A DNA stretch of 64,000 nucleotides, taken from the NCBI RefSeq assembly GCF_041886205.1, contig NZ_CP169029.1; one strand, 5' to 3'. A model generated the notes under the pieces. That model did no database searches and was not told where the DNA came from. It saw nothing but the letters and a program-made list of their open reading frames with translations. The stretch is from Escherichia coli. GTDB lineage: Bacteria; Pseudomonadota; Gammaproteobacteria; Enterobacterales; Enterobacteriaceae. The translations under genes were made by a program, and so were the position numbers. Positions 1,543 through 56,634 of this stretch are shown here, one piece after another. How positions within the stretch are numbered: position 1 is the stretch's first letter; every line of letters begins with the position of its first letter.

Positions 1543-1652
1543 GGTAACCCCAATGGATTAAAATAGATGGCGGAAATAAGTATGACGATTTTAAGTATTC
1601 GTCATACTGATTACCTGTTCTGGATCAATAGATGGGCAGTCGGGTGGGCGGA

Positions 1653-2240
1653 TCAGTTAACTGAATCGATCCATTGCACACTGTCGGCGGAGAGCGTAAA
1701 GGGGGTAGGGGTGCAGATCGCCAGACTTAAATTTTCTAGCTGACAATGGCTGACTGACAGCGAGGAGTGATAGGTGCTATCTACGCTGACGATTTGCCAG
1801 GCGCTGCCGCCACGCTGTTTAACGATGGCTTCTTTGCGCGTCCAGATGCGCCAGAACATTTCCAGTTGCTGATCAGGATGCACGGCGTCCATTTCAGCGT
1901 GTTCCCCGAGGCTGAACACGGCGTTCGCCAGCCAGCGCCAGTTGGCGCGCGGGCGAATCACTTCGATATCGCAGCCGACTTCGCCTTCATCGCTCAACAG
2001 CAGAGCGATATCGTCACCGCTATGGCTTAAGTTGAACCATAGCGGTGTTTCCGGCGCGAATGCCGGTTTGCCTTGTTCGCCATAGATGATCTCCGGTAGC
2101 GGGGAAAGCGTGTGCGAAAGCAATGCACGCCCCGCCAGCCAGCGTTCGCGTCGTGGACCTTGCGGTGCTTGCTCGCGTAAACCCGGTGGCAGTGGAGCTG
2201 CGCTTAAGGTCGAAACTTTCCCCAGAACTATCCGATACAT
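1653..2240 (-). CDS. acpT: 4'-phosphopantetheinyl transferase AcpT
   Basis: 195 aa ORF matches remembered AcpT over full length; position next to nikA as in K-12. Confidence 0.9.
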   Translation of the reverse strand: MYRIVLGKVSTLSAAPLPPGLREQAPQGPRRERWLAGRALLSHTLSPLPEIIYGEQGKPAFAPETPLWFNLSHSGDDIALLLSDEGEVGCDIEVIRPRANWRWLANAVFSLGEHAEMDAVHPDQQLEMFWRIWTRKEAIVKQRGGSAWQIVSVDSTYHSSLSVSHCQLENLSLAICTPTPFTLSADSVQWIDSVN

Positions 2241-2294
2241 ATCAGGGCCAACGTATAATGGAAAATGAAAGTGCGTATCGTATCACTTGTCGCC

Positions 2295-3344: not shown

Positions 3345-3475
3345 TGGGGCTTCCTTGTGACTTTTTGTATTAAGTGTAGCGGGAGTCACGCCAGCAATAT
3401 TCTGATTCTTACTGCTGATTTTCACGTCAGCACGTGGTAAAAATGAAACACTGTTGTAAAAATGTGGTGATCCTC

Positions 3476-4693: not shown

Positions 4694-4696
4694 AAC

Positions 4697-5254
4697 TTAC
4701 TGAATAACCAGCGTATTAATGATGTTTTCTGCGGTGGTCTGCGCTTTTTGCTGATCGTCAGCTGGCAGAGTAATTTGCATGGTCAGCAGTTGATTACCCA
4801 CGTTACCCAGAATAACGGAAGAGTACGCCGTCTGGCCTTTCGCGGAGATAATACTGTCTAACTGCTGCATTTTGTGACCTTTCAGCTCAATGGCTTTATT
4901 GGTTACCACTTGCAGCTGCGGATCGCGGCTACGTTGCTGATCTTCCAGACGCTTCGCCAGCACCGCCAGATCTTCTTTCGGATCATCGCCCATGATGACG
5001 ATGACTGCTTTCTGCCCGGTGGCGTCGGACCAGACATGCATGTTATTGGCCTGCGTTCCCAGCTTACCGCTCTGGTCGGTCATATCCGCTGGCAGCGAGA
5101 AACTTAACTTGCCATCAAGCAGGTTGACGGGATTCCCGGTAGCGTTACTTTCCGCGACCGAACCCTGCGCCGTAGCGTTAGTGTCTTTATCATCACAGGC
5201 CGCAAGCCCCATAACCAGCAGGCCAATTCCGACATATTTAACCAGATTGCGCAT
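4697..5254 (-). CDS. dcrB: Periplasmic lipoprotein DcrB
   Basis: ORF 4697..5308; internal start [20 protein letters not shown] (lipoprotein signal plus lipobox) gives 185 aa matching remembered DcrB. Confidence 0.85.
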
Positions 5255-5326
5255 TGACTTCTTCCTTTCGATAAACGGCCATAACGGCTCATTCATCCAT
5301 CTTATCACAACTCTGATAACGAACCT

Positions 5327-5992
5327 TTAACTCGCCTGCAAAGCGTTGATTTCGGATTTATCTGCCAGTCTTTTCAACAGCATATTGAGTAATACACCAT
5401 ACATTGGCAGGAAGAAAACGATACTGATTAACACTTTGAAACAGTAATCGACTAGCGCGATTTCCATCCAGTGTTCAGCCATAAAGGCATCCGGGCTACG
5501 CCAGAAGGCAATGAAGAAGAAGGCCAGTGTGTCGCTGACGTTACCGAACAGTGTGGACGCTGTCGGTGCCAGCCACCAGCGGCGACTCTGACGCAGGCGG
5601 TTAAAAACGTGCACGTCGAGGATCTGTCCCAGCGCGTAGGCCATGAAACTGGCGGTGGCGATACGGGCGACAAACAGGTTGAAGTGGGCGAGTGCGCCGA
5701 ATCCCTGCCATGACCCCATATAAAACAGCGATGAGATGACGTAGGAGATCAGCAATGCGGGGATCATCACCGCAAAGATGATACGACGGGCCAGCGGTGC
5801 GCCAAAAATACGCACAGTCAGGTCGGTAGCGAGAAAGATAAACGGAAAGCTAAACGCGCCCCAGGTGGTGTGAAAACCAAAAATGGAGACGGGAAGCTGA
5901 ACCAGATAGTTACTGGAGGTGATCACCAGAAGATGAAATAACGATAACCAGAACAACGCCTTATAGCGTTGAGTTTGCGAGAAAACGTTCAT
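5327..5992 (-). CDS. yhhQ: Queuosine precursor transporter YhhQ
   Basis: 221 aa polytopic membrane protein matching remembered YhhQ. Confidence 0.9.
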   Translation of the reverse strand: MNVFSQTQRYKALFWLSLFHLLVITSSNYLVQLPVSIFGFHTTWGAFSFPFIFLATDLTVRIFGAPLARRIIFAVMIPALLISYVISSLFYMGSWQGFGALAHFNLFVARIATASFMAYALGQILDVHVFNRLRQSRRWWLAPTASTLFGNVSDTLAFFFIAFWRSPDAFMAEHWMEIALVDYCFKVLISIVFFLPMYGVLLNMLLKRLADKSEINALQAS

Positions 5993-6212
5993 ATTGTACC
6001 TTTTTGATTAACCATTGGGGTGAGGGAACCCAATACGTACGACACGTCTGTTACCTTAACATAATAACGTGCTTACCCTTTTTTCGAGCCGCCGCATGAT
6101 ACTGCTTTACGTTGACAATGCAATGGTTAATTTTCACGCAATCGTTAACCTGGTTTGCTTACGGACTCACAGGGCGTAAACTAGCGCCGTTTTTTTATGT
6201 GATGAGAAGAAA

Positions 6213-6458
6213 ATGACCGATCTCTTTTCCAGCCCTGACCACATACTCGACGCACTTGGCCTGCGCTGCCCGGAACCCGTAATGATGGTGCGCAAAACAG
6301 TGCGCAATATGCAGCCAGGTGAAACGTTGCTGATTATTGCTGACGATCCGGCGACGACCCGCGATATTCCTGGGTTTTGTACCTTTATGGAACACGAACT
6401 GGTTGCGAAAGAGACGGATGGACTGCCTTATCGTTATTTGATTCGCAAAGGCGGTTGA
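6213..6458 (+). CDS. tusA: Sulfur carrier protein TusA
   Basis: 81 aa ORF with the LRCPEP active-site Cys motif; matches remembered TusA. Confidence 0.92.
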
Positions 6459-6502
6459 TGGGGGCTGATTGGCTTCGATGCCGCCTTTTCCCCTCACCCT
6501 AA

Positions 6503-6556
6503 CCCTCTCCCCAGAGGGGCGAGGGGACCGATCGCGCTCAATGTTGCGATCGGTTT
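6503..6556. terminator. Two adjacent hairpins between convergent tusA and zntA (likely bidirectional terminator)
   Basis: Inverted repeats ccctctcccc/ggggcgaggg (6503..6525) and accgatcgc/gcgatcggt (about 6527..6556) sit between the two stop codons. Confidence 0.5.
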
Positions 6557-6559
6557 GCC

Positions 6560-8758
6560 TTATCTCCTGCGCAACAATCTTAACGCATTCGCCGTCACCA
6601 GCACCGTCGCACCCGTATCTGCCAGCACCGCCAGCCACAACCCGGTCATCCCTAACAGCGTGGTGACGAGGAAGATCCCTTTCAGCCCCAGCGCAATGGT
6701 GATGTTCTGGCGGATATTGGCGTGAGTGGCGCGTGCCAGTTCAATCATTTGCACCAGGCCGCGCAGGTGGTTATGGGTTAATGCTGCGTCGGCGGTTTCC
6801 AGCGCCACGTCTGTGCCACTGCCCATTGCAATCCCAATGGCGGCAGCTTTCATCGCTGGCGCGTCGTTAATACCGTCACCGACCATCGCCAGCGGCGCAT
6901 GTTGATTCAGCTCGGTCACCGCTTTGACTTTATCTTCCGGCAACAGGCCCGCTTTAAACTCCAGCCCCAGCTCCCCGGCAATTGCCGCCGCTGCGCGTGG
7001 ATTATCGCCGGTGAGGATCACTCCTTTAACCCCCAGCGCGTTCAGTTCACTGATGGCAGTTGCAGCGTCGGCGCGCAGGGTATCCTGCAATGCAATGATA
7101 CCCAGCACGTCATCATTACGTACTACCAGCACAACCGTTTGCCCGGCGCTTTCCAGTTCATTAATCAAACCAGCAAATGCATCAGCGGGATGTTTCCCGG
7201 CAGCGCAAATCAATACGCGCTCACCGTTAACCTGCGCTTCAATGCCAGACCCGACCAGCGCCCGCTGTGATTCGGCGGCGGGAATGGCGAGTGCAGCAAC
7301 CTGTGCTTCGCGCACGATGGCTTGCGCCAGTGGATGCGTCGCGCCTTGCTCGACCGCCGCCGCCAGTGTCAGCAGTTCAGATTCACTAATACCCGTTGCC
7401 GGATGAATCGCGGTAACGCGCGGTTTACCGACGGTCAGCGTACCGGTTTTATCAAACGCCACCTGAGTAACACGACCTAGTTGTTCCAGCGCCGCTCCGC
7501 CTTTAATCAACGCCCCACGACGCGCTGCTGCCGCCAGCCCGGAGGTAATCGCCGCGGGCGTGGAGATAACTAACGCACACGGGCAGCCAATCAGCAGCAG
7601 CGTCAGGCCTTTATAAATCCACTCCTGCCAGCTGGCGGCAAACAGCAGCGGTGGCACCAGCGTCACCAGCAGGGCGACGGCCATAATCGCTGGCGTATAA
7701 ATACGGCTGAAACGGTCGATAAACCGCTCAATGGGGGCGCGGCGCTCTTCGGCTTCTTCGATCAGTTTCAGAATCCGGTCAATGGCGCTGGCACCCGGTT
7801 CTGACAGCACTTCCAGCGTTACCAGACGGTCTACGCTGGTGGCTCCTGCAGGAACTTTATCGCCCGTTGCGCGCTCCACCGGAATGGATTCTCCGGTCAG
7901 GGCGCTTTCATCAAAACTGGCAAACGGTGAGAGCAGTTTACCGTCGGCAGGCAAACGCCCACCTGCGGCGACTTCAATCACATCGCCAGGCCGCAGGCTG
8001 TTAATCGCCACCTCTTCCCGCTCACCGTTACGCAGGCGCGTGGCGGTTTCTGGTTTCAGCGCCATTAAAGCGCTAACGCCCTGACGCGCGCGGCTGGCGG
8101 CCCAGCCTTCCAGTCGTTCACCAATCAAAAACAGCAGCAACACCATCGCAGCTTCAGCCGTTGCGCCAATAAACAGTGCACCAATAGCGGCTACGCTCAT
8201 TAAGGTTTCAATGGCGAAGTAGCTGCCGGATTTGATCAGCCGTAATGCCTGACGAGCAATCGGGTACAGCCCAACCAGCGTGGTCGCGATAAACGCCAGT
8301 TGCCCGAACGGATGATTAAATTGCTCCAAACCCCAGCTGATTGCCATCATCACGATAAGCGTAATCAGCGGCAGATTCTCTTTCAGGCGCGATGCTTGTG
8401 GCTCGTCGGCGGCCTGCTCATCGCGCAGGGAATAGCCCGCTTTTTGCACCGTAGATTCAACCTGGGCACGGATGTCATTGTCGGCATCAACCACCAGTTT
8501 TTCGGTGGCGAACAACACCTGCACCTGATTCACGCCTGCAAGCTGGCGCACGGCATTTTCTACCTTGCGCGCACAGGCGGCGCAGTCCATGCCGCTGACT
8601 TTCCAGCTATAGCGGGTGCCGGAGACGTTTTCAGAGAGCGTTGGCGAGCTGGAACATGCGCCGTCGCAGCAACAGTCGTTGGCGTTCTGTACCGTGGTTA
8701 GCGGTTTGAACGCAGCAAATTGAGGGGCTTTCTTGCCGTGATTGTCAGGAGTCGACAT
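6560..8758 (-). CDS. zntA: Zn/Cd/Pb-translocating P-type ATPase ZntA
   Basis: 732 aa ORF with N-terminal CCCDGAC and GMDCAAC metal-binding motifs, CPC transmembrane motif and DKTGTLT phosphorylation motif. Confidence 0.95.
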   Translation of the reverse strand: MSTPDNHGKKAPQFAAFKPLTTVQNANDCCCDGACSSSPTLSENVSGTRYSWKVSGMDCAACARKVENAVRQLAGVNQVQVLFATEKLVVDADNDIRAQVESTVQKAGYSLRDEQAADEPQASRLKENLPLITLIVMMAISWGLEQFNHPFGQLAFIATTLVGLYPIARQALRLIKSGSYFAIETLMSVAAIGALFIGATAEAAMVLLLFLIGERLEGWAASRARQGVSALMALKPETATRLRNGEREEVAINSLRPGDVIEVAAGGRLPADGKLLSPFASFDESALTGESIPVERATGDKVPAGATSVDRLVTLEVLSEPGASAIDRILKLIEEAEERRAPIERFIDRFSRIYTPAIMAVALLVTLVPPLLFAASWQEWIYKGLTLLLIGCPCALVISTPAAITSGLAAAARRGALIKGGAALEQLGRVTQVAFDKTGTLTVGKPRVTAIHPATGISESELLTLAAAVEQGATHPLAQAIVREAQVAALAIPAAESQRALVGSGIEAQVNGERVLICAAGKHPADAFAGLINELESAGQTVVLVVRNDDVLGIIALQDTLRADAATAISELNALGVKGVILTGDNPRAAAAIAGELGLEFKAGLLPEDKVKAVTELNQHAPLAMVGDGINDAPAMKAAAIGIAMGSGTDVALETADAALTHNHLRGLVQMIELARATHANIRQNITIALGLKGIFLVTTLLGMTGLWLAVLADTGATVLVTANALRLLRRR

Positions 8759-8793
8759 GGCATCCTCCGGTTAAGTTTTTTCTCATTAACCGA

Positions 8794-8826
8794 AGGATAC
8801 ACTCTGGAGTCGACTCCAGAGTCAAG
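8794..8826 (-). promoter_or_regulatory. zntA promoter with ZntR (MerR-type) operator palindrome
   Basis: Perfect 22 bp palindrome actctggagtcgactccagagt at 8801..8822 between a -35-like CTTGAC (complement of 8821..8826) and a -10-like TATCCT (complement of 8794..8799), i.e. the long-spacer MerR-family promoter layout. Confidence 0.75.
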
Positions 8827-8831
8827 TTTTA

Positions 8832-9458
8832 TCAGAGATACAGCGAGCGGACGATCAGGAAGTGACCGGCAAAGTAGCAGGCCGCAGCAATCGCGTTATC
8901 CGCACGGAAGCGTCGGCGATAGTGGCTCCCCAGCCAGACAAAGTTACTGATAAACAGCAACGAAGCGCCAACAAACGCAGAGAGCGCCGGAGCGGTCGGA
9001 CGGAAGAACCACAGTTCACCTGCCAGCCACACCATCACCAGCGTCATGCCGATAAACGTGCAGATAGGCCAACGGTACTCTTCCAGCCGCGTCCAGATAA
9101 TCGCCAGTAACAGCGCGCCCAGAACCAGCAGCACCAGTGGCAGAGGCCAGAAGAAAGAGAGCGTCATCTGACTGGCGAAATAGATGGTGTACAGCAGGTG
9201 CGAGAGGAAAAACGCGCCGATGGCGTACATCAGACGTTGACGTGGCAACAGGGTTAGCGCATCGCCCAGCAGTGAGGCGCACAGCCCTGCCAGCACCAGA
9301 TAGCTAATGGCGTCGAACATCGGCGCTTGCCAGGCCAGTAACAGCAGGAGAAGAAGGGTTAACGGTTTAAACACCCAGCGTTGCCAGGTTGGCCCACGAT
9401 ACGATGCATCCACAGATAGCCATGCGGAAAGACAGACAGCGATAAACGACCAAAGCAT
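8832..9458 (-). CDS. yhhN: YhhN family membrane protein (TMEM86-like, putative lysoplasmalogenase)
   Basis: 208 aa polytopic ORF matching remembered YhhN. Confidence 0.88.
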
Positions 9459-9598
9459 CTTAGTTCCTTGAATTCGTTATTTTTTCGTAAGCGGAATGCC
9501 TACGGTCTTGCTTCCAGTTTAGTGGCGAGGGTGGACGGATGACAACACCATAACTGGCAGGGTATGCTTAATTCCGCATTTTCCGATGAGGGATAAAG

Positions 9599-9958
9599 AT
9601 GAGTAAACCACCTCTTTTCTTTATTGTTATCATTGGCTTAATCATCGTCGCCGCATCGTTTCGTTTTATGCAACAGCGACGGGAAAAAGCTGATAATGAT
9701 ATGGCTCCGCTCCAGCAAAAGCTGGTGGTGGTGAGCAACAAGCGGGAAAAACCGATTAACGATCGCCGTTCGCGCCAGCAGGAAGTGACTCCGGCAGGCA
9801 CCAGTATGCGCTATGAGGCAAGCTTCAAACCGCAAAGCGGAGGAATGGAGCAGACGTTTCGCCTCGACGCCCAGCAGTACCACGCCCTGACAGTGGGCGA
9901 TAAAGGTACGCTGAGCTATAAAGGAACGCGCTTTGTCAGCTTTGTAGGCGAACAATAA
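9599..9958 (+). CDS. yhhM: DUF2500 protein YhhM
   Basis: 119 aa ORF with N-terminal TM segment; matches remembered YhhM. Confidence 0.85.
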   Translation: MSKPPLFFIVIIGLIIVAASFRFMQQRREKADNDMAPLQQKLVVVSNKREKPINDRRSRQQEVTPAGTSMRYEASFKPQSGGMEQTFRLDAQQYHALTVGDKGTLSYKGTRFVSFVGEQ

Positions 9959-9960
9959 GG

Positions 9961-10230
9961 TTATTTTTTAACTTTAAATTTCTTCTGCCAGACCAGCAGT
10001 TCAAACACGCCGAAAAGGAAAATCCGTACCTTTTCGGCGGTGGTCATCTGCGGGCCATCTTTCGGTAAAGTGGATTTCAATAGCGCCAGCTGCATACCAT
10101 GCATCAGCACGGTAAAAATCAGCGCCACGTTAACGAAAATATTCAGCGGGCGCGGGAAGGGATGCACCAGATTGAGGATTAAAAATCCCCAAACGCAGAG
10201 CATTAACAAACGACCAATATTAATCAGCAT
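9961..10230 (-). CDS. yhhL: DUF1145 small membrane protein YhhL
   Basis: ORF 9961..10353; internal start MLINIGRLLM at 10230 gives the 89 aa remembered protein and overlaps the rsmD stop. Confidence 0.75.
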   Translation of the reverse strand: MLINIGRLLMLCVWGFLILNLVHPFPRPLNIFVNVALIFTVLMHGMQLALLKSTLPKDGPQMTTAEKVRIFLFGVFELLVWQKKFKVKK

Positions 10231-10816
10231 CACTTTCTCCTTGTGCTTCGCGTTGATACAGCCGATAAGCCACCTGACCCGCCACTTTTTCCCGATGTAA
10301 TGACCAGTTTGCCGGAACAGTGGGCAGACCGTTTTCGACTTCGCTTTCGACATAAATCAGGGCTTCGTCAGCCAGCCAGCCGTTATCTTCCAGTAAATTT
10401 ATCGTCTCTTCTAACAAGCCACGGCGGAACGGTGGATCGACAAACACGATATTATGCGGTGTGCCTTTTTGCGCCAGGAATGACATTGCGTTGCTGTTCA
10501 CCACGCGTGCATTGCCTGCTTTTAGTGTCGCCAGATTCTTAATTAACTGCTGAGAAACCACGCGATCCATCTCAATCAACGTTGCCCCCGCAGCGTAGCG
10601 CGATAACGCTTCCAGCCCCAGCGCGCCGCTCCCGGCGAAGCAATCCAGACATTGGGCGTCAACAATGACCGGAGCCAGCCAGTTAAACAACGTTTCGCGT
10701 ACGCGGTCGGTGGTGGGGCGCAGACCTGGGCTATCAGGAACCGGGAGTTTACGGCCTCGCCACTGCCCGCCAATAATGCGGATTTGGCCGCTGCCGGAAT
10801 GATTCGGTTTTTTCAT
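10220..10816 (-). CDS. rsmD: 16S rRNA (guanine966-N2)-methyltransferase RsmD
   Basis: 198 aa ORF with the methyltransferase motif LDCFAGSGALGLEALSR and DPPF motif. Confidence 0.92.
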   Translation of the reverse strand: MKKPNHSGSGQIRIIGGQWRGRKLPVPDSPGLRPTTDRVRETLFNWLAPVIVDAQCLDCFAGSGALGLEALSRYAAGATLIEMDRVVSQQLIKNLATLKAGNARVVNSNAMSFLAQKGTPHNIVFVDPPFRRGLLEETINLLEDNGWLADEALIYVESEVENGLPTVPANWSLHREKVAGQVAYRLYQREAQGESDAD

Positions 10817-36807: not shown

Positions 36808-36820
36808 TTACTGCGACAAA

Positions 36821-36852
36821 TTACTGCGAGCTTGCTCGCAGTAATTCATTTC
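36821..36852 (+). terminator. gntU rho-independent terminator
   Basis: Stem ttactgcgag/ctcgcagtaa with loop cttg followed by a T-rich run. Confidence 0.7.
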
Positions 36853-36946
36853 TCTTATCTCCTCTCTTCATCTTTTTGATCCCTCTCGCAAATTTACCTG
36901 CTAATAATCCGTTCTAATCACTGCCTAAAGATCGCAGGAGATAAAG

Positions 36947-39043
36947 ATGGAAAAGCACGGAGCTGAATTGCTTTTACAGCGGATGTTAGGAAATACCACC
37001 GCTACTTTCAGGAAAGGGCAATGGGAAGCCATAGACGCGGTGGTGAACCAACGGCGAAAACTGCTGGTTGTCCAACGCACTGGCAGGGGGAAAAGTGCCG
37101 TGTACTTCATCGCCAGTAAAATCTTCCGCGATCGCGGTGCTGGCCCGACAATTATCATCTCTCCTTTGCTTGCCCTGATGCGTAACCAGGTTGCCGCCGC
37201 TGAACGGTTAGGTATTACGGCTGAAACGTTGAATTCTACAAACAGGGAAGAATGGCAGCGTATTAGCGATAAGTTGCTGCAAGGTGAGGTCGATTGCTTG
37301 CTGGTTTCCCCGGAACGTTTGGCAAACCAGGACTTTATCGAAACGGTTTTATATCCTATAGCCGATCGTATTGGCTTGCTTGTGGTCGACGAGGCGCACT
37401 GCATCTCTGATTGGGGCCACGATTTTCGCCCGGATTACCGACGTATATTAGATATTTTGCGCCAACTGCCTGCGAATATCCCAGTTCTGGGTACAACCGC
37501 GACAGCGAATAACCGTGTCGTTGAGGATATCCGTCAGCAATTGGGTGACATTGTGATTCAGCGTGGAACGCTGGCTCGCGAAAGTTTGGCGCTTGATGCC
37601 TTAGTCTTAGGTGAACAGTCATCCCGTCTGGCATGGTTAGCAACGGTTATCCCTCAGTTTTCCAAATCGGGAATTGTTTATACCCTGACTACTCGCGATG
37701 CCGAACTTGTCGCCGAGTGGTTAAGGACAAATGGTATCAGTGCATTTGCTTACTACAGCGGCGTGACTTGTGAAGGCGCGGAAGATTCTAATACTGCCAG
37801 GGAATATCTGGAGCAGGCGCTGCTGGCAAATAAAATCAAAGTGCTGGTCGCGACGACGGCATTAGGTATGGGGTTTGATAAACCTGATTTAGGTTTCGTC
37901 ATTCATTATCAAATGCCGGGGTCTATTGTCGGTTACTACCAACAGGTAGGGCGTGCCGGGCGTGCTATAGATTCCGCTGTTGGCATATTGCTTTGTGGTG
38001 GTGAAGACCGCGCTATTCATAAATTCTTCCGTGAAAGCGCCTTTCCTGCGGAGGCGCAAATTCATGAAATACTCAACGTACTTAGCGAGAATGACGGTCT
38101 TACCCTACGAGGCATTGAACAACGGACGAATCTCCGTTATGGGCAAATAGAAAAAGCACTGAAATTATTGGTAGCTGAAAATCCATCGCCTGTGGTGTAT
38201 ACCGAGAAATTATGGCGCAGAACTATCGTCAGTTTCTCTCCTGACCATGAACGAATTAACCATTTGATGAATCAGAGAAAAAATGAGCTGGCAGATGTTG
38301 AAAGCTATATCACGACCAAGGAGTGCAAAATGCAATTTCTGCGCCGCGCACTCGATGAGCCAAGTGCCGAACGTTGTGGTAAATGTAGCAGTTGTCTTCA
38401 GCATCCGTTGCTGTCGCCCGATATTGATAGCGGCTTACTCCATGCGGCAAATTTATTTATTAAACACGCTGACCTGCCATTAAATCTCAATAAACAGGTA
38501 GCATCTGGGGCTTTTACGCAATACGGATTTAAAGGGAACTTGCCTGCGGGTTTACAAGGATCTACGGGGCGAGTCCTTTCTCGTTGGGGAGATTCCGGGT
38601 GGGGAAAGCAGGTAGCACAGGAGAAAAAAACGGGGCGATTCAGTGATGAGCTGGTGGAGGCATGTGCGGAAATGGTTCGCCAACGCTGGAATCCGCATCC
38701 TGAACCAACCTGGGTATGCTGCGTTCCTTCATTAAGGCACCTCGACCTGGTTCCTGATTTTGCCCGGCGACTGGCGGCGAAACTTGGCTTACCTTTTATT
38801 GATGCCATTGAAAAAGTCGTGGACAATCCACCGCAGAATATGCAGCAAAACCGTTTTCACCAGTGTCAAAATCTCGACGGGGCGTTTGTGATTACCCCTC
38901 CTTTGATGCCAGGTCCGGCGTTGCTGGTTGACGATATCGTGGATTCTGCATGGACGCTGACAGTTCTGACAGCACTGTTACGCCAGGCAGGTTGCCCGAC
39001 GGTTTATCCTCTTGCCCTTGCTTCTACCTCGGTAAAAAATTGA
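36947..39043 (+). CDS. RecQ-family DEAH-box helicase with zinc-binding motif and C-terminal phosphoribosyltransferase-like (ComF-like) domain; accessory gene absent from the K-12 gntU-yhgN junction
   Basis: 698 aa ORF with strong SD (aggag, 36936..36940). Motifs: Walker A TGRGKSAVY, RecQ-type motif II VVDEAHCISDWGHDFRPDY, TATA motif, helicase-C QQVGRAGR, Cys cluster C..CGKCSSC, C-terminal PRTase-like LLVDDIVDSAWTL. Confidence 0.88.
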   Translation: MEKHGAELLLQRMLGNTTATFRKGQWEAIDAVVNQRRKLLVVQRTGRGKSAVYFIASKIFRDRGAGPTIIISPLLALMRNQVAAAERLGITAETLNSTNREEWQRISDKLLQGEVDCLLVSPERLANQDFIETVLYPIADRIGLLVVDEAHCISDWGHDFRPDYRRILDILRQLPANIPVLGTTATANNRVVEDIRQQLGDIVIQRGTLARESLALDALVLGEQSSRLAWLATVIPQFSKSGIVYTLTTRDAELVAEWLRTNGISAFAYYSGVTCEGAEDSNTAREYLEQALLANKIKVLVATTALGMGFDKPDLGFVIHYQMPGSIVGYYQQVGRAGRAIDSAVGILLCGGEDRAIHKFFRESAFPAEAQIHEILNVLSENDGLTLRGIEQRTNLRYGQIEKALKLLVAENPSPVVYTEKLWRRTIVSFSPDHERINHLMNQRKNELADVESYITTKECKMQFLRRALDEPSAERCGKCSSCLQHPLLSPDIDSGLLHAANLFIKHADLPLNLNKQVASGAFTQYGFKGNLPAGLQGSTGRVLSRWGDSGWGKQVAQEKKTGRFSDELVEACAEMVRQRWNPHPEPTWVCCVPSLRHLDLVPDFARRLAAKLGLPFIDAIEKVVDNPPQNMQQNRFHQCQNLDGAFVITPPLMPGPALLVDDIVDSAWTLTVLTALLRQAGCPTVYPLALASTSVKN

Positions 39044-40245
39044 TGAATCTTTCAGCCAATGCACAAGCGACTCTCCTGCTAACCAGCGATTTTTCTCGCG
39101 CGGCGGCGAGTGAGCATAAACCTCTTAGTAATAGTGAATGGGGGAAGTTTGCATTATGGCTGAAGCACCAACGTATCAGTCCCGCCGAGCTTCTGGTGCC
39201 GCAACCGCAAGAGAAACTTACAGGCTGGAGCGATCCGCGTATTTCTCAGGAGCGTATTCTTGGCTTGCTGGCGCGCGGTCATAGTCTGGCGTTGGCGGTA
39301 GATAAGTGGCAACGCGCCGGTTTATGGATCATAACCCGAGGAGATGCTGATTATCCCGTTCGCTTGAAAAACCGATTGCGAACGGATGCACCTCCCGTTT
39401 TATTTGGCTGCGGGAATAAAGCATTACTGCAAGCGGAAGGTATGGCGATTGTTGGCTCGCGAGATGCTCCGACTGACGATTTGCGCTATACCCAACAACT
39501 GGCCGCGAAACTGGCCCAACAGGGGATTTGCGTTATCTCTGGTGGTGCGCGAGGTATTGATGAATGTGCAATGGCGTCGGCACTGGAGGCCGGGGGAACT
39601 GCCGTTGGCGTATTAGCTGATAGCTTGTTAAAAACGAGTACGTTAGTGAAATGGCGTGAAGGGCTTATAGCAGGCAACCTGGTGTTGATTTCGCCGTTTT
39701 ACCCAGAGGTGCGTTTCACCGTCGGCAATGCGATGGCGCGAAATAAATATATTTATTGCCTTGCTGAAAGCGCAATGGTTGTACGTGCGGGAATGACCGG
39801 TGGAACGATAACCGGGGCGATAGAGGCATTAAAACATCAGTGGCTGCCTGTGCAGGTTAAACCAAATCAGGATATGCAATCAGCCAATTCACGATTAGTA
39901 GAAAATGGGGCGTCATGGAGTGCTGAACAGGCTGAGAATGTGCCGATCAGACTGTCAGACGTTCCTGGGCTGATGTATGACAGAGCACTCCGTAACGCTC
40001 AACCAGAACTGTTTTCGCTGTATGAAGATGACGCAAATTACGCAGTAATGCCCGCGCATACGCCTGTCGATTTTTATCAACTCTTTGTGGCGGAACTGGC
40101 GATCTTTGCAAAGGAATCGATAAGTATTGAAAGGCTGTCGTCTTGTACTGGTTTAACCATCGAACAAATTAGTGTGTGGCTGAACCGCGCAGAAGAAGAG
40201 GGAAGGGTTATCCGATTGGGCGAAGGTCATTATCAGTTCAGGTAA
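39043..40245 (+). CDS. DprA/Smf-like protein (Rossmann/SLOG-fold core with N-terminal extension and C-terminal winged-helix-like tail); accessory
   Basis: ORF track frame 38950..40245; start taken at MNLSANAQ (39043), whose ATG overlaps the upstream TGA stop (TGATG). Core motifs IVGSRDAP, VISGGARGIDECAMASALEAGG and LISPFYPEVRFTVGNAMARN resemble DprA. Confidence 0.85.
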   Translation: MNLSANAQATLLLTSDFSRAAASEHKPLSNSEWGKFALWLKHQRISPAELLVPQPQEKLTGWSDPRISQERILGLLARGHSLALAVDKWQRAGLWIITRGDADYPVRLKNRLRTDAPPVLFGCGNKALLQAEGMAIVGSRDAPTDDLRYTQQLAAKLAQQGICVISGGARGIDECAMASALEAGGTAVGVLADSLLKTSTLVKWREGLIAGNLVLISPFYPEVRFTVGNAMARNKYIYCLAESAMVVRAGMTGGTITGAIEALKHQWLPVQVKPNQDMQSANSRLVENGASWSAEQAENVPIRLSDVPGLMYDRALRNAQPELFSLYEDDANYAVMPAHTPVDFYQLFVAELAIFAKESISIERLSSCTGLTIEQISVWLNRAEEEGRVIRLGEGHYQFR

Positions 40246-40248
40246 TAA

Positions 40249-40284
40249 AACAGGTGCCGCGTCTGGTTGTGTGCAGCACCTGTT
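40249..40284. terminator. Hairpin between the DprA-like gene and convergent yhgN
   Basis: Perfect 9 bp inverted repeat aacaggtgc/gcacctgtt around an 18 nt loop, immediately after the stop at 40245. Confidence 0.5.
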
Positions 40285-40290
40285 TGAACC

Positions 40291-40884
40291 TTACCCCTTC
40301 ATCCACATTCGAATGCCGTCGAGGAACATCTGGGTTGCCATCATCACCAGAATCAATCCCATCAGGCGTTCAAGTGCGTTCACCCCTTTCTCGCCCAGCA
40401 GACGTAAAAATAGCGAAGACTGTAGCAGGATGACAAAGGTGCCGCCCCAGGCCAGCAGCAGAGCAATCACCAGATGTCCCATCTGATTTGGGTACTGATG
40501 AGACAACAACATCAGCGTGGCGAGAATAGTCGGCCCGGCGACTAACGGAATTGCCAACGGCACGATAAATGGCTCTTCACCTGCCGGAAGCCCGCTGCTA
40601 TTTCCTGAAGCGCTGGGGAAAATCATCTTAATGGCGATCAGAAACAGTATGATGCCGCCAGAAATGGAGACGGTTTCTGCTCGCAGGCTAAGAAATGCCA
40701 GAATTTTCTCACCCGCAAACAGGAACACCAGCATCACCAGGAGAGCAATAAGCAACTCTCGCACCATGATTGCCCGCCGTCTTTTCGGTTCAGTATGTTT
40801 CAGTACGGACATGAAAATAGGTAGGTTTCCGAGCGGATCCATAATCAGGATCAATAAAACTGCTGCAGAAATGATTTCATTCAT
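40291..40884 (-). CDS. yhgN: MarC family inner membrane protein YhgN
   Basis: 197 aa polytopic ORF matching remembered YhgN. Confidence 0.9.
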   Translation of the reverse strand: MNEIISAAVLLILIMDPLGNLPIFMSVLKHTEPKRRRAIMVRELLIALLVMLVFLFAGEKILAFLSLRAETVSISGGIILFLIAIKMIFPSASGNSSGLPAGEEPFIVPLAIPLVAGPTILATLMLLSHQYPNQMGHLVIALLLAWGGTFVILLQSSLFLRLLGEKGVNALERLMGLILVMMATQMFLDGIRMWMKG

Positions 40885-51866: not shown

Positions 51867-51936
51867 CCATCATTTCGGAAAAGTGTCCAGAAGGGGCAAG
51901 GGGACTCGGGGAGTATAATTTCGCCATTCAGAAAGA

Positions 51937-53454
51937 ATGGAAAGAATAATGCAAAACAGAAAATGGATTTTGACCTCGCTGGTAATGACTTTTTTCGGCA
52001 TCCCCATACTGACGCAATTTTTGGCAGCGGTTGTTGCTATGCTGGGGGGCGGGCTTGCCGCTATTCTTGAGGTTTGCAATTTACTCTTTACGCCAGCAAT
52101 TTATCTTCTACTCAACGTCTTTATGCTGACTCTGGGGGCGATAATAATATTTTTCTCTGGTCGCGTGTGGGCGGGCGATAGTGCACCAGAAAAAAAAGAA
52201 ATAGCCGTCTGGCGACAATGTCTTTTTTTAGTACCTGCTTTATTCACCCTGGTTGGCTGGATAATCACGCTACATCTGGCAGATTATCAATTTCGCCAGA
52301 TGGGAGACGGTTGGTTGGCAAACCTTATGCTTCCCTGGTTGGGCATTTTTTTAGTCTCATTAGTGGGTGGTGAGTACTGGTGGATAGTCATTATACCCGT
52401 TGGCGCGCATATCAGTTTTTCGCTGGGGTACGGTTGGCCGACCAGACATCTTTTAACGGGCACGTCCGGGTTACGTTGCCGTAATTCCCTCTTGTTTATC
52501 CTTCTCATGCTTGGTTTTGTCGCCGGTTACCAGGCTTATTTATATAAACAGCTTAATCCCGGCGTCGGTGTCCGCGAAAATATTGATACCTGGGCCTGGC
52601 GACCCGATAAACTCAATAATCAACTGACACCATTACGTGGTAAACCGCAAATTCAGTTTACGCAAAACTGGCCGCGACTCGATGGTGCTACGGCGGCGTA
52701 CCCAATTTATGCCTCTGCCTTTTATGCGTTGAGCGTTATACCGGAAGATTTTCACACCAGGGAATATCTGGAGAACTCTCATACCCCCGATGCATATAAC
52801 AGGATTGTTAAAGGTGATGCCGATATTATTTTTGTGGCGCAACCCTCCGGTAGGCAGAAAAAACGCGCTGAGGAATCGGGCGTCACTTTGCTATACACGC
52901 CATTTGCCCGTGAAGCATTCGTTTTCATCGTCAATGCGGATAATCCGGTTAATTCCCTGACTGAACAACAGGTGCGTGACATCTTCAGTGGTGCAATTAC
53001 CAACTGGCGTACTGTTGGCGGTAACGATCAGGAGATCCAGACCTGGCAACGCCCGGAAGACTCTGGCAGCCAGACGGTGATGCAATCACAGGTCATGAAA
53101 AATGTCCGCATGATCTCGCCGCAGGAAACAGAAGTGGCAAGTATGATGGAGGGAATGATTAAAGTCGTTGCCGAATACCATAATACAAAGAACTCAATTG
53201 GCTACACCTTCCGCTATTACGCCACGCAAATGAACGCTGACAAGAATATCAAATTGTTAGCGATTAACGGTATTGCACCCACTGCGGAAAATATCCGTAA
53301 CGGCAAATATCCGTATATCGTCGAGGCATTTATGGTAACGCGGGAAAATATGACCTCAGAAACACAAAAATTGGTGGAGTGGTTTTTAACGCCGCAGGGG
53401 CAGAGCCTGGTGGAAGATGTAGGTTATGTGCCGATGTATAAGACGCTACCTTAA
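51937..53454 (+). CDS. Polytopic membrane domain fused to a C-terminal PstS-like (phosphate-binding-protein fold) periplasmic domain; K-12 has only the yzgL pseudogene here
   Basis: 505 aa ORF; N-terminal ~200 aa hydrophobic, C-terminal region with PBP-like motifs (DGATAAYPIY..., SGSQTV). A TATAAT-like element lies ~25 bp upstream. Start may be M1 (51937) or M5 (51949). Confidence 0.75.
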   Translation: MERIMQNRKWILTSLVMTFFGIPILTQFLAAVVAMLGGGLAAILEVCNLLFTPAIYLLLNVFMLTLGAIIIFFSGRVWAGDSAPEKKEIAVWRQCLFLVPALFTLVGWIITLHLADYQFRQMGDGWLANLMLPWLGIFLVSLVGGEYWWIVIIPVGAHISFSLGYGWPTRHLLTGTSGLRCRNSLLFILLMLGFVAGYQAYLYKQLNPGVGVRENIDTWAWRPDKLNNQLTPLRGKPQIQFTQNWPRLDGATAAYPIYASAFYALSVIPEDFHTREYLENSHTPDAYNRIVKGDADIIFVAQPSGRQKKRAEESGVTLLYTPFAREAFVFIVNADNPVNSLTEQQVRDIFSGAITNWRTVGGNDQEIQTWQRPEDSGSQTVMQSQVMKNVRMISPQETEVASMMEGMIKVVAEYHNTKNSIGYTFRYYATQMNADKNIKLLAINGIAPTAENIRNGKYPYIVEAFMVTRENMTSETQKLVEWFLTPQGQSLVEDVGYVPMYKTLP

Positions 53455-53556
53455 GCAGGATAATCATATGGATACCGGTATTATTCACCTGAACGCGGCG
53501 AATGTTCGTTTTGTTTATCAACCATTTACACGCGACCAGCGGAAGAGGGGGTAATT

Positions 53557-54333
53557 ATGCAACCCAGCCCCGCCATGCAGGCATTAATTGAGCAGATTTA
53601 TTATATTTTTCGTCGTTATCCTGTGCCATCGAGATTTCATGTTTGTTGTCCTTACTGTTTTAGCGAAGAACAACAACAAGCCTTAAGAGGGGTTTCACTG
53701 CGTGCCATACCTTTTCCTTTATTACATGCCTGGGGAACAAGTATTGGCCCTAACCCACAAAATGATGATGAGATTCGCTATTTATTACCCAGATTGTTTG
53801 AATTAATTGCCCAAAGGCAATTTCCAGGCATTTATGAAGGCTGCTGTTTACAGAGAATAGCAGAGGCAGATAACCAGAACTGGCGAAGGGATGAACTACA
53901 AATAATTAGCGATTTCGCCTATTTATATATGCAGGATTGGGTGTCGGCTAAGGAAGTCGTGGAACTGGAAATAATATTAGAAATGTTTTATCGCGGTGGT
54001 ATAAAGATTGAACCCTTACTTGACTCTATTATGTCCATTTCCGGTTACTGGCCGACGGCGTCTATGGCATGTTTGCTCTGGCGTAACAGTAAAGAATACG
54101 TCGAAAATAGCGATTTTGAGCAGAGTGATGATAATAAAACTATTACCACCCAAATCAATACTTGGGCTAGAAACAATCATCCTTTGCTGAAAGAAAGAGC
54201 GCGGCAAGCGATTGAGAACCCACTAAAACAGCCCGAACCAATGACAGAATATCAAGTCTGGGAAGACGACTGGATGATTGATGAGTGTTTATGCGCGATG
54301 TATGACGCATCACCTGAACAATCAGGACAATAA
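53557..54333 (+). CDS. Hypothetical cytoplasmic Cys-containing protein, AT-rich gene
   Basis: 258 aa ORF with strong SD (agaggggg) and no TM segments; codon usage visibly AT-rich compared with flanking glg/glp genes; no family recognised by eye. Confidence 0.65.
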   Translation: MQPSPAMQALIEQIYYIFRRYPVPSRFHVCCPYCFSEEQQQALRGVSLRAIPFPLLHAWGTSIGPNPQNDDEIRYLLPRLFELIAQRQFPGIYEGCCLQRIAEADNQNWRRDELQIISDFAYLYMQDWVSAKEVVELEIILEMFYRGGIKIEPLLDSIMSISGYWPTASMACLLWRNSKEYVENSDFEQSDDNKTITTQINTWARNNHPLLKERARQAIENPLKQPEPMTEYQVWEDDWMIDECLCAMYDASPEQSGQ

Positions 54334-54335
54334 AG

Positions 54336-54935
54336 ATGAAGAAAATCAGACTTTATATTTATCCGCTATATCTCGGCTTTGTTATTGTGCCGTTGTTGGT
54401 ATGGCCGACGGTGGTTGCGCTGGTTGTTGTTGGTATCACACTGAGTTTTCTGATGGAGATGCTGTTCTCAAATTCGTTCATGCACAGGCGTATTTCCCTT
54501 CTGGAATTACAACTTGGGTTATTGGCTGAATATACGCTTTTGTTCTGCGCCATATGTTACGTTGGTTGGCAATTTGCTTCCAGAACTCAATCTGAATTGA
54601 AAAGCAGACTGCATTGTTGGTTGGTATTTGCACCAGTTTATTTCTGGTTGTTCCTGTGGGATATCATTTTCTATGTCGCGCCAGCGAAAATTACATTGCT
54701 GGAAAATATGCGCAGTTTCTTTCTGACCGTTGTCTGGCTCCCACTGAATTTTTCGCCATTTTGGCCTCAGCCGTGGACTGACTTTATCGGTCCGATAAGT
54801 GCACAGCTTGGGTTTGCGTTAGGATATTACTGCCATTGGCGCAGCAAAAATAGAAGCCAGAGGCTGAAGTGGGGGGAGTGGGGAACGTGCCTGAGTTTTG
54901 TTACGTTGGGTATGATGGCGTGGGCTTTACGGTAA
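54336..54935 (+). CDS. Hypothetical small polytopic membrane protein
   Basis: 199 aa ORF starting 3 bp after the previous stop; 4-5 predicted hydrophobic helices; AT-rich. Confidence 0.6.
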   Translation: MKKIRLYIYPLYLGFVIVPLLVWPTVVALVVVGITLSFLMEMLFSNSFMHRRISLLELQLGLLAEYTLLFCAICYVGWQFASRTQSELKSRLHCWLVFAPVYFWLFLWDIIFYVAPAKITLLENMRSFFLTVVWLPLNFSPFWPQPWTDFIGPISAQLGFALGYYCHWRSKNRSQRLKWGEWGTCLSFVTLGMMAWALR

Positions 54936-54984
54936 TTCTCTGACTCAAAAAGTAGGTCAGATTGTTGACAAAGTGCACTTTGTT

Positions 54985-55066
54985 CATGCCTGATGCGGCG
55001 TGAACGCCTTCTCAGGCCTACAAAATCATGCAAATTCAATACATTGCATAAACCACGCATCAGGCA
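54985..55066. repeat. REP elements between the accessory module and the glpD 3' end
   Basis: tgcctgatgcggcgtgaacgccttctcaggcctaca (54988..55022) matches the REP consensus; a partial inverted unit (cgcatcaggca) lies near 55056. Confidence 0.7.
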
Positions 55067-55128
55067 ATTTTGTGTTTATCATCAGTCTCAGGTCAGATTG
55101 AAATCTGACCCGGCCACCTTACGTTAAA

Positions 55129-56634
55129 TTACGACGCCAGCGACAACTTCTGCTGCGTATACTCCACCAGCCATTGGCTAATGCGTGACTGCTGTTGCGC
55201 ATTCAGCCACATGCCTTGTTTTGTGCGACGCCACAGGGCATCGTCGGCGCGGCGGACCCATTCGTGATCCACCAGGTATTTCAGTTCCGCTTCGTAGAAC
55301 TCATGACCGAAATCCTCCCCGAGGTCGCTTACCGTCCCCGCATTGCCGAGCAGCAGCTCGCTGTTGCTGCCGTAAGTGCGTGCGTAATGACGCGCCAGCG
55401 ATTCGGTCAGGAACGGGTAACGGCGGCGCAGGCGGGCGGCGTAGTCATCGCGGTCGCCCTCGATGGCACCACCCGGCAGCACGCTCTCTTTCGTCCACGC
55501 CGGGCCAATGCCCTGATAATACGGCGTCAGTTTTTCCAGCGCATGTTCCGCCAGTTTGCGGTAGGTGGTCAGCTTACCGCCGAATACCGACAGCAGCGGT
55601 GCTTTGCCGTTTTCATCATGGATATCAAGGGTGTAATCACGGGTAATGGCTTGCGGCGAGTCGGACTCATCATCACACAGCGGACGCACACCGGAGTAGG
55701 TCCAGACGATATCGTCACGGCTTAGCTGCTTTTTAAAGTGCGCGTTATACACTTTCAGCAGGTAGTTGATTTCACTCTCTTCAATCTTCACCGCTTTTGG
55801 ATCGCCTTTGTATTCCACATCGGTGGTGCCGATGATGGAAAACTCGTCCATCCACGGGATCACGAACACAATACGTTTATCTTCGTTTTGCAGAATGTAG
55901 GCTTGCTTCTGGGTATGCACGCGTGGCACCACAATATGGCTGCCTTTGATCAGGCGAATGCCATAAGGCGAAGGCAGGTGCATCCCGTCGTCGAAGAACT
56001 GCTTCACCCACGGGCCGGTAGCATTAACCAGGCCGCGCGCCTGCCATGTATATTTTTTGCCGGTATCGATATCTTCCGCTTCCACAATCCACAGGCCGTT
56101 TTCGCGGCGAGCAGAGGTGGCGCGAGTCCGAGTAAGCACTTCGCCGCCTTTACGCACCACCATCTGGGCGTTGGCGAGTACCAGACGGGCGTCGTCTACC
56201 CAACAGTCAGAATATTCGAATCCGCGCTTAATTTCCGGTTTTAACACTGAGTTTGCGCCAAAACGCAAACCGGTTGATCCCGGCAGGCTGGTGCGTTTAC
56301 CCAGATGATCGTACATAAACAGACCAATGCGAATCATCCACGCCGGGCGCAGATGCGGACGATGCGGCAGGCGAAAACGCATCGGGAAGGCGATATGAGG
56401 GGCCATTTTCAGTAGCACTTCACGTTCAGCCAGCGCCTCGCTGACCAGGCGGAATTCATAGTGCTCAAGGTAGCGCAGGCCACCGTGAATGAGTTTTGAA
56501 CTGGCGGAGGAGGTCGCGCAAGCGAGATCCTGCGCCTCCAGCATCAGCACGGATAAACCGCGTCCAGCGGCGTCTGCCGCGATACCAGCACCATTGATGC
56601 CGCCCCCTATCACAATCAGATCTTTGGTTTCCAT
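55129..56634 (-). CDS. glpD: Aerobic glycerol-3-phosphate dehydrogenase GlpD
   Basis: ORF 55129..56649; start METKDLIVIGGGINGAGIA (56634) gives the remembered 501 aa protein. Confidence 0.95.
   Translation of the reverse strand: METKDLIVIGGGINGAGIAADAAGRGLSVLMLEAQDLACATSSASSKLIHGGLRYLEHYEFRLVSEALAEREVLLKMAPHIAFPMRFRLPHRPHLRPAWMIRIGLFMYDHLGKRTSLPGSTGLRFGANSVLKPEIKRGFEYSDCWVDDARLVLANAQMVVRKGGEVLTRTRATSARRENGLWIVEAEDIDTGKKYTWQARGLVNATGPWVKQFFDDGMHLPSPYGIRLIKGSHIVVPRVHTQKQAYILQNEDKRIVFVIPWMDEFSIIGTTDVEYKGDPKAVKIEESEINYLLKVYNAHFKKQLSRDDIVWTYSGVRPLCDDESDSPQAITRDYTLDIHDENGKAPLLSVFGGKLTTYRKLAEHALEKLTPYYQGIGPAWTKESVLPGGAIEGDRDDYAARLRRRYPFLTESLARHYARTYGSNSELLLGNAGTVSDLGEDFGHEFYEAELKYLVDHEWVRRADDALWRRTKQGMWLNAQQQSRISQWLVEYTQQKLSLAS

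Follow-up and report, generated by a model that had tools for sequence, protein, structure and literature searches.

Why a genome with a canonical dprA also carries a second DprA-like gene, placed directly behind a helicase gene between gntU and yhgN, is the question raised by this locus in the window (the whole 64,000-nucleotide stretch of Escherichia coli DNA that was analysed). The gene at 39043-40245 is rqlI (psyrA). It has a name and a published characterisation; the finding holds but is not new. It lies at 39043..40245 on the + strand, stop codon included, and encodes a 400-aa DprA-like antitoxin and RqlH interactor, as identified by profile matches and by the ortholog in E. coli CFT073. 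The PADLOC PsyrA profile (PDLC03927) aligns residues 1-400 to profile positions 1-397 of 398 (E=2e-199, 660.7 bits). RqlI is identical to its CFT073 ortholog at 390 of 400 amino acids, leaving 10 differences, and the rqlH-rqlI pair is 98% identical to the CFT073 pair; both are found at the gntU/yhgN site. Russell and Mulvey (2015; PMC4670107) studied RqlI of the ExPEC strains F11, CFT073 and 536. The window gene shares with these its identity, the 400-aa length, the gntU/yhgN locus, the upstream rqlH and the stop/start overlap. The helicase residue K49, the PRTase residue D663 and the 1-400 length given in that paper map exactly onto the window proteins. The psyrTA name is credited to Sberro 2013 where Millman 2022 and Rousset 2022 cite it. 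Taken as a whole, the open reading frame is best explained as the rqlI/psyrA gene of RqlHI/PsyrTA, whose product restrains RqlH in a proposed system of defence by abortive infection, with a probability of roughly 0.9.

The open reading frame spans 38950-40245 (+) and contains the ATG at 39043. RefSeq places the rqlI start at 38950, which gives a product of 431 aa. The start is assigned here to 39043 because the N-termini of distant homologs all read MNL(S/T)..AQATLLLT and because the PsyrA profile aligns across residues 1-400; judged by these alignments, the RefSeq start is over-extended. The rqlI ATG overlaps the rqlH TGA stop by one base (junction ...TTGATGAAT). The window finding matters chiefly as annotation. 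The annotated start should shift from 38950 to 39043, and the name rqlI/psyrA (antitoxin of RqlHI/PsyrTA) should replace 'DNA-processing protein DprA'.

The AlphaFold2 model of RqlI has an overall pLDDT of 84.5. An N-terminal helical domain (residues 5-91; 39055..39315, +) has pLDDT values of ~76-92, corresponds to the SAM-like domain of DprA and ShosA, and is strongly conserved among the 31 homologs compared. It is followed by a Rossmann/SLOG (DprA) core (residues 95-295; 39325..39927, +), which is delimited by Pfam, the model and Foldseek and contains the SGGARGID motif. Residues S166, G167, G168, A169, G171 and D173 of this core are invariant in the same 31 homologs. The linker that comes next (residues 305-340; 39955..40062, +) is disordered, with pLDDT below 50, and its length differs by up to ~100 aa between these homologs. 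The C-terminal winged-helix-like domain (residues 344-399; 40072..40239, +) is modelled with pLDDT 80-93 as a helix, a short strand, a helix-helix pair and two strands, and it is conserved among homologs.

The original prediction of a DprA-like Rossmann/SLOG core, made by eye, is borne out by the Pfam DNA_processg_A family (PF02481; residues 89-292, E=1e-50), by the model and by structural matches to DprA. In Foldseek searches the model aligns to 3maj (2e-18), 3uqz (1.6e-15) and 8zva, which is ShosA (6e-15), over 304-418 columns; the alignments to SpDprA and ShosA cover 304-308 columns. Outside the PF02481 core, RqlI keeps ~88 aa on the N-terminal side and ~108 aa on the C-terminal side. The flanks of ~100 aa that had been proposed are therefore of the right size, and the C-terminal one is a winged helix as suggested, whereas the N-terminal one is the helical domain of DprA and ShosA and not an extension.

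RqlI shares with canonical DprA/Smf (E. coli smf; PDB 3maj, 3uqz, 4ljk) the helical N-domain, the Rossmann/SLOG core, the C-terminal winged helix and the GxARGID motif. It differs in sequence, location and partner. Strain LHM10-1, which is 100% identical, has its canonical dprA next to def/fmt and smg (L002:9546-10670), and RqlI is 32% identical to that protein over 156 aa, within the core only. Its scores fall below the NCBIfam cut-offs for the dprA equivalog TIGR00732 (102.2 bits against 191.15) and for NF008007 (PRK10736; 78.9 bits against 495). In profile and alignment terms, RqlI is a divergent second DprA that stands beside the canonical smf, as had been claimed. A simple duplication of smf is rejected on the same scores and on the confinement of the 32% identity to the core. 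The canonical smf/dprA is a core gene, whereas rqlI is accessory and lies away from def/fmt/smg. RqlI is bound to a toxin domain, and RecA loading is not its known role.

Other members of the SLOG-fold group are less similar. LOG and MoCo-carrier folds also appear among the Foldseek matches to the RqlI model. The molybdenum-cofactor-binding label used in the 2015 paper is rejected as a true domain assignment, with MoCo carriers matching at E ~1e-6 and DprA at 2e-18. The original prediction had further suggested that the SLOG domain might sense a nucleotide second messenger, as in Thoeris ThsA, and so regulate the helicase. The SLOG cluster4 match (PF18306, E=5e-11) and the LOG and MoCo-carrier folds point in that direction, but the likeness is generic, the DprA family match is much stronger, and among characterised proteins the nearest relatives bind ssDNA and RecA rather than nucleotides. 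The two-gene insert encodes no TIR, no cyclase and no other signal-producing enzyme, and the linkage of enzyme and effector that would mark such a system is not found. This part of the prediction is unsupported, and nucleotide sensing by RqlI is most improbable.

The gene lies in an accessory insert of 3483 bp that runs from the gntU stop to the yhgN stop (36808..40290) in place of a 56-bp K-12-like intergenic region. Its borders were set by direct comparison of the window with an empty-site sequence (L006); homology to empty-site genomes stops at window position 36807. The gntU-proximal (left) end of the insert holds a terminator-like hairpin (36819..36846, +) just 3' of gntU, in which a 12-bp stem precedes a T-rich tail. 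A promoter scan of the + strand between gntU and rqlH returned no sigma-70 consensus promoter. The insert contains rqlH and rqlI only. Among 5426 complete E. coli genomes, 1650 (~30%) carry the two-gene block, in every case on the chromosome, which agrees with the predicted accessory operon. An origin of the insert as a mobile element is rejected: flanking repeats are not visible by eye, and neither an integrase nor a transposase is annotated in the insert.

The upstream gene, rqlH/psyrT (36947..39043, +), encodes a 698-aa RecQ-like SF2 helicase with a Zn-binding motif and a C-terminal PRTase (toxin) domain. It scores 1057 bits with the PADLOC PsyrT profile and 254 bits with NCBIfam recQ_fam, above the cut-off of 220. 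The Pfam families DEAD and Helicase_C are matched, and RecQ_Zn_bind and Pribosyltran are matched weakly. The motifs TGRGKS, DEAH and CGKCSSC and the PRPP motif LLVDDIVDSAWT are present. RqlH is identical to the CFT073 protein at 682 of 698 residues. Window RqlH also carries W47R, a rare substitution in the Walker-A loop, by which it differs from the CFT073 partner. A helicase-PRTase gene lies directly upstream, overlapping or a few bases away, at all 12 of the homolog loci examined (48-64% identity), so the co-occurrence that the prediction implied is complete in this set.

The function of the pair is known from closely related strains. In the E. coli orthologs, which are 98% identical to the window pair, rqlH and rqlI share a transcript (PMC4670107). 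Without RqlI, RqlH causes DNA damage, SOS induction, filamentation, mutagenesis and growth arrest, and this damage is produced by the PRTase domain together with the remainder of RqlH (PMC4670107). The F11 RqlI co-immunoprecipitates with RqlH and neutralises its genotoxicity, as shown by co-expression and co-immunoprecipitation; RqlH truncated to residues 1-509 loses this association, and the C-terminal PRTase domain is thus required (PMC4670107). Neutralisation depends on two parts of RqlI, its N-terminal domain and its DprA core. Truncated RqlI variants that begin after residue 84 or 129 (and also lack the C-terminal HTH) fail to complement, and the C-terminal HTH or winged helix is dispensable for neutralising RqlH (PMC4670107). 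Window RqlI is predicted from the F11 ortholog to bind and neutralise its own RqlH. The proposal that RqlI is a partner of the helicase is upheld by the operon, the co-immunoprecipitation and the genetic suppression (PMC4670107), with the amendment that the contact is made through the PRTase domain and not through the helicase core. The PDB copy searched holds no structure of RqlH, of RqlI or of their complex.

The nearest comparison for this arrangement is ShosTA (DprA-PRTase; Rousset 2022; PDB 8zva, 9vzo). In ShosA, the DprA-like antitoxin, a helical N-domain and a Rossmann core make up a DprA-like fold. ShosTA is an anti-phage system, and its toxin is a PRTase whose activity damages DNA and makes cells filament. 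RqlI is not assigned to ShosA: the ShosA profile matches residues 85-266 of RqlI and not its full length (3.5e-27), and RqlI is paired with RqlH, in which helicase and PRTase are fused. ShosT has no helicase part and is a PRTase on its own, and ShosA is without the conserved C-terminal winged helix of RqlI. Both ssDNA and RecA are bound by ShosA (PMC11961720, PMC12961424), whose RecA-binding residues are K200 and R206, and it is described as a type IV antitoxin that neutralises through RecA and not through toxin binding. RqlI might by extension recruit RecA to ssDNA and repair the PRTase damage without any inhibitory binding of the toxin. The shared DprA fold is consistent with this, as is the dependence of ShosA antitoxin activity on ssDNA binding, dimerisation and RecA binding (PMC12961424). 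The co-immunoprecipitation of RqlI with RqlH, with its requirement for the PRTase domain, and the restriction of the ShosA profile match to the RqlI core argue against it, and such indirect neutralisation is unlikely as the account of RqlI. Direct binding and an indirect, ShosA-like mode are not mutually exclusive.

Russell and Mulvey proposed a cooperative DNA-maintenance module, in which the PRTase modifies a nucleotide in DNA and RqlI and the helicase resolve or repair the product, as part of housekeeping, repair or DNA uptake. RqlI retains the full three-domain DprA layout with the SGGARGID core, and the competence trio of the ComFA helicase, the ComFC PRTase and DprA offers a parallel (PMC4670107, PMC5512222). 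Helicase-dead RqlH (K49A) is toxic even with RqlI (PMC4670107), which also fits a joint activity. Against these observations, deletion of rqlHI has no fitness cost in mice or in vitro, and no transformation was detected (PMC4670107). The pair is patchy, occurring in ~30% of E. coli, lies within restriction-modification (R-M) operons elsewhere, and has homologous systems that protect against phage. A maintenance role is unlikely.

Restraint of RqlH by RqlI, the favoured reading, agrees with the counting of PsyrTA/RqlHI as a phage-defence system by Millman 2022, in which a homologous PsyrTA confers phage resistance on a surrogate host and a psyrA deletion mutant was not transformable (bioRxiv 10.1101/2022.05.11.491447). 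In an uninfected cell, RqlI would keep the PRTase of RqlH silent. During infection, a phage cue may remove or overwhelm RqlI and free the toxin, which would then stop replication of both host and phage and amount to abortive infection. The cue would most plausibly be ssDNA or replication intermediates acting at a DprA-like ssDNA/RecA-binding surface, by analogy with ShosA. The analogy is imperfect because ShosA is described as acting through RecA and not through toxin binding.

A further alternative is that the pair is essentially a selfish toxin-antitoxin (addiction) module that contributes little or nothing to defence in E. coli and is kept because cells that lose rqlI die or pay a cost. Deletion of rqlI is deleterious, and a phenotype is reported for the CFT073 deletion (PMC4670107); deletion of the whole pair is neutral. 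For the native PsyrTA of E. coli NILS69, neither deletion nor transfer to MG1655 revealed detectable protection against the phages that were tried, and the system caused a growth defect (bioRxiv 10.1101/2024.12.20.629700). O157:H7 (Z1814) retains an intact rqlI although its toxin gene has become a pseudogene, which is the typical order of decay in toxin-antitoxin systems. The chromosomal location at a single fixed site, with borders that have neither mobile-element genes nor repeats, speaks against addiction, as do the embedding of homologs in R-M operons and the defence shown for a homolog. Addiction as the sole basis for retention is improbable. RqlHI bears on the fitness of ExPEC, whose colonisation is crippled when rqlI is lost, since RqlH then turns genotoxic.

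At five of the 12 distant homolog loci, rqlHI is nested among the genes of a type I R-M operon, with hsdS before it and hsdR after it, in the order hsdM-hsdS-rqlH-rqlI-hsdR. Operons of this kind occur in Marinobacter, Vibrio and Shewanella (L003, L004, L018). The papers searched contain no description of this nesting. A precedent is PrrC, which is embedded in the type IC ecoprrI locus (PMC12707154), much as rqlHI sits amid hsd genes at these five loci. PrrC is an anticodon nuclease, and the window rqlHI locus has no adjacent R-M genes. A functional link between RqlHI and R-M is a candidate lead suggested by gene order. More specifically, RqlI could be an infection sensor whose ssDNA/RecA surface is titrated by phage intermediates, with the pair serving in many bacteria as a PrrC-style back-up to R-M; this proposal is tentative and has the odds against it. 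If true, the R-M-nested pair in many bacteria would fire once restriction is disabled, and the frequent nesting of homologs in type I R-M operons is a testable lead on how RqlHI is triggered. At one homolog locus, rqlHI is adjoined by a NACHT gene.

The DprA-like gene at 39043-40245 (+) is rqlI/psyrA, an already known gene that the original prediction correctly rediscovered from raw sequence; papers of 2015 and 2022 describe both the gene and its role. In PADLOC-DB, the PsyrA profile covers RqlI over its full length (2e-199; residues 1-400, profile positions 1-397 of 398), and RqlH, the product of the upstream gene, is matched by the PsyrT profile (E=0, 1057 bits). The similarity of RqlI to the ShosA profile is confined to the core (3.5e-27). 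Russell & Mulvey 2015 (PMC4670107) introduced the names rqlH, for a RecQ-like helicase that has a PRTase domain, and rqlI, for the 400-aa RecQ-like helicase interactor. According to the Millman et al. 2022 preprint, PsyrTA and RqlHI are the same system. CFT073, in which rqlI was deleted among other strains (PMC4670107), has the rqlH-rqlI pair at the same gntU/yhgN site, with 390/400 identical residues in RqlI and 682/698 in RqlH. What remains of interest is the mis-set RefSeq start, the generic 'DprA' name, the PsyrTA mechanism and the restriction-modification (R-M) nesting of distant homologs.

In the ORF listing, a + strand ORF at 38950-40245 overlaps the end of the 698-aa ORF at 36947-39043. 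The ATG at 39043 has one base in common with the upstream TGA stop (…TTGATGAAT…) and gives a RqlI of 400 aa. The N-termini of the Citrobacter, Providencia, Marinobacter, Shewanella, Vibrio and other homologs all read MNL(S/T)..AQATLLLT, in register with this ATG. The PsyrA profile and the published constructs, numbered 1-400 (PMC4670107), are in accord with it, so the predicted coordinates 39043-40245 hold. Judged from these alignments, ATG 39043 is the true rqlI start and the RefSeq start is mis-set. The RefSeq product is 431 aa long and starts at 38950 inside the helicase gene, a 94-nt overlap with rqlH.

The DprA/SLOG core with flanks of about 100 aa, predicted downstream of a helicase, is recovered by Pfam. 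DNA_processg_A (PF02481) matches residues 89-292 (E=1e-50), which leaves ~90 extra residues on one side and ~110 on the other, and the match to SLOG cluster4 (PF18306) is weaker (5e-11). The canonical dprA/smf adjoins def-fmt and smg in LHM10-1 (L002:9546-10670), a strain 100% identical to the window. RqlI shares 32% identity with canonical DprA and is alignable over 156 residues of the Rossmann core only. On the NCBIfam dprA equivalog models it scores 102 against a cut-off of 191 and 79 against a cut-off of 495. The core-only identity and the sub-cut-off scores rule out a simple smf duplication, and by sequence comparison RqlI is a second, divergent DprA, as proposed.

An AlphaFold2 model of RqlI, built with 31 homologs as input (pLDDT 84.5, pTM 0.71), has a helical N-domain (residues 5-91) followed by a Rossmann core at 95-295, and a winged-helix-like domain at the C-terminus (344-399). 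A disordered linker at residues 305-340 is variable in length among homologs. In Foldseek searches of the PDB, the best match listed is 3maj, the DprA of R. palustris (E=2e-18 over 418 aligned columns). S. pneumoniae DprA (3uqz, 1.6e-15), ShosA (8zva, 6e-15) and H. pylori DprA are also matched. From these matches, the modelled N-terminal 'extension' is equivalent to the SAM-like domain that ShosA and full-length DprA also have. Matches to MoCo carriers and LOG proteins rank far lower (about 1e-6), and the 'MoCo-binding domain' label of the 2015 paper reflects nothing beyond the common SLOG fold. A sequence search of the PDB found no solved structure of RqlI or RqlH.

RqlH carries DEAD and Helicase_C domains, with weak Pfam matches to the RecQ zinc-binding and C-terminal phosphoribosyltransferase domains. 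In NCBIfam it scores above the RecQ-family subfamily cut-off and below the RecQ equivalog cut-off. Residues K49 and D663 of the 2015 paper map exactly to its Walker A loop and PRPP loop 'DIVD'. The Walker A motif of the window RqlH is TGRGKS (W47R; codon 47 at 37085-37087), two residues before the catalytic K49, and is TGWGKS instead in nine distant homologs, CFT073, CFSAN061769 and O157:H7. Of 5426 complete E. coli genomes, only six contain the exact 41-mer with the Arg codon. The PRPP-binding loop is DDIVDSAWT in the window, CFT073 and CFSAN061769 (residues 662-670, window about 38930-38945). Homologs from other genera (9/9) have DS-G-WT, so E. coli RqlH has an Ala where the loop glycine is normally conserved. 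F11 RqlH is still toxic (PMC4670107).

The two genes are co-transcribed (PMC4670107). RqlH without RqlI causes SOS, filamentation, mutagenesis and growth arrest, and its PRTase domain is required for toxicity (deletion of 509-690, D663A) and insufficient by itself (PMC4670107). Helicase-dead K49A and D148A RqlH are toxic, with partial relief only from RqlI (PMC4670107). RqlI and RqlH co-immunoprecipitate, and the interaction is lost with RqlH 1-509 (PMC4670107). RqlI truncated by its first 84 or 129 residues, and also by the C-terminal HTH, does not neutralise RqlH; RqlI 1-320, without the last 80 residues (HTH), still does (PMC4670107). In orthologs, RqlI has thus been shown to bind RqlH PRTase-dependently and to neutralise its genotoxic PRTase. 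The predicted partnership with the helicase protein stands in that sense; on RqlH, the contact is with the PRTase toxin domain. One rival reading is that rqlHI acts as a cooperative DNA-repair module. In animals, rqlI deletion is attenuated and rqlHI deletion is not (PMC4670107).

Phage protection has been shown for a homolog: PsyrTA/RqlHI is among the two-gene toxin-antitoxin systems that protect against phage, and a psyrA deletion was unobtainable (Millman et al. 2022 preprint, bioRxiv 10.1101/2022.05.11.491447). A related DprA-PRTase pair, ShosTA, defends, and its DprA was proposed to sense phage DNA (Rousset et al.). ShosA has both ssDNA and RecA as binding partners, and its interaction with RecA is disrupted by excess ssDNA (PMC11961720, PMC12961424). 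In a rival reading, RqlI would in the same manner neutralise RqlH indirectly via RecA. In the mechanism judged most likely, the DprA-like surface of RqlI may engage phage ssDNA or replication intermediates, or RqlI might otherwise be lost upon infection. Either step would free the PRTase and stall replication, as abortive infection. The Thoeris-like nucleotide sensor originally suggested, with RqlI sensing a SLOG ligand, has nothing to support it: a signal-producing enzyme is absent from the two-gene insert, and the binding partners of the closest characterised relatives are ssDNA and RecA.

The native PsyrTA of E. coli NILS69 gives no detectable protection against the phages tested and slows growth when moved to MG1655 (bioRxiv 10.1101/2024.12.20.629700), which speaks against PsyrTA having a strong role in E. 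coli defence. A further rival is a purely selfish addiction module, and the intact rqlI beside a pseudogenised rqlH in E. coli O157:H7 Z1814 fits it. There (L014 4148-7474), rqlH is annotated as a pseudogene with a frameshift and internal stops; compared with the window, it has about 29 additional bases and a 1-base gap, and the rqlI that follows differs by 10 aa. This is the usual order of toxin-antitoxin decay.

Among homologs of RqlI (48-64% identity), a helicase gene of ~700 aa lies directly upstream in 12/12 loci, the predicted co-occurrence, and the helicase stop and rqlI-homolog start overlap or are a few bases apart. A weak PRTase Pfam match is recorded for nine of these helicases. This linkage agrees with the published census, where 87.9% of Gram-negative carriers have both genes (PMC4670107). 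In five of the 12 loci, a type I R-M operon encloses the pair, in the order hsdM-hsdS-rqlH-rqlI-hsdR. The nesting is intact in Marinobacter (L003), Vibrio vulnificus (L004), Pseudomaricurvus (L011) and the P0087 locus (L018; NCBI protein name, Shewanella xiamenensis), at about 500-10600 in each, and decayed in L007 (3525-7812). The prrC gene is likewise embedded in a type I R-M locus, the type IC locus EcoprrI (PMC12707154). A NACHT gene adjoins the pair at one further locus. No R-M genes adjoin the E. coli locus itself, and none of the papers searched joins hsdS, hsdR, RecQ and DprA in the sense of an R-M-nested pair.

The predicted accessory character of the operon is confirmed: the block 36900-40300 is present in 1650/5426 complete E. 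coli genomes, always chromosomal, with a median of 1 copy per carrier genome (maximum 2) and 95-100% identity. The window is E. coli chromosomal DNA, and the pair sits between gntU and yhgN. Homology of genomes without the block stops exactly at the gntU stop (36807), and the gntU-yhgN gap is only 56 bp in a K-12-like genome; the insert is therefore 36808-40290, 3483 bp with rqlH and rqlI as sole genes. No flanking repeats, integrase or transposase were seen at it. As a whole, the original interpretation is partly supported.

Citrobacter werkmanii has the pair at the same gntU/yhgN position (L005 3905-7206; RqlI 64% aa identity), which suggests that the insertion is old and was lost repeatedly, or else that integration recurs at this spot. 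Between the rqlI and yhgN stops, an inverted repeat read by eye (ACAGGTGC ... GCACCTGT, 40250-40283) has an A-run at one flank and a T-run at the other, and could therefore be a bidirectional terminator. Its long loop kept it from being flagged by the terminator scan.

The interval from glgP to glpD contains a low-GC stretch (0.44-0.48) at about 51900-55900, with genes for a substrate-binding protein of the PstS family and for two hypothetical proteins. In CFT073, a fimbrial operon and three hypotheticals occupy this position, so the stretch is a second variable region of the window. Between livF and ugpB, a gene at about 22618-23364 encodes a 248-aa tetratricopeptide-repeat protein. It is probably another small accessory insert, because the corresponding intergenic sequence of CFT073 is only about 400 bp long.
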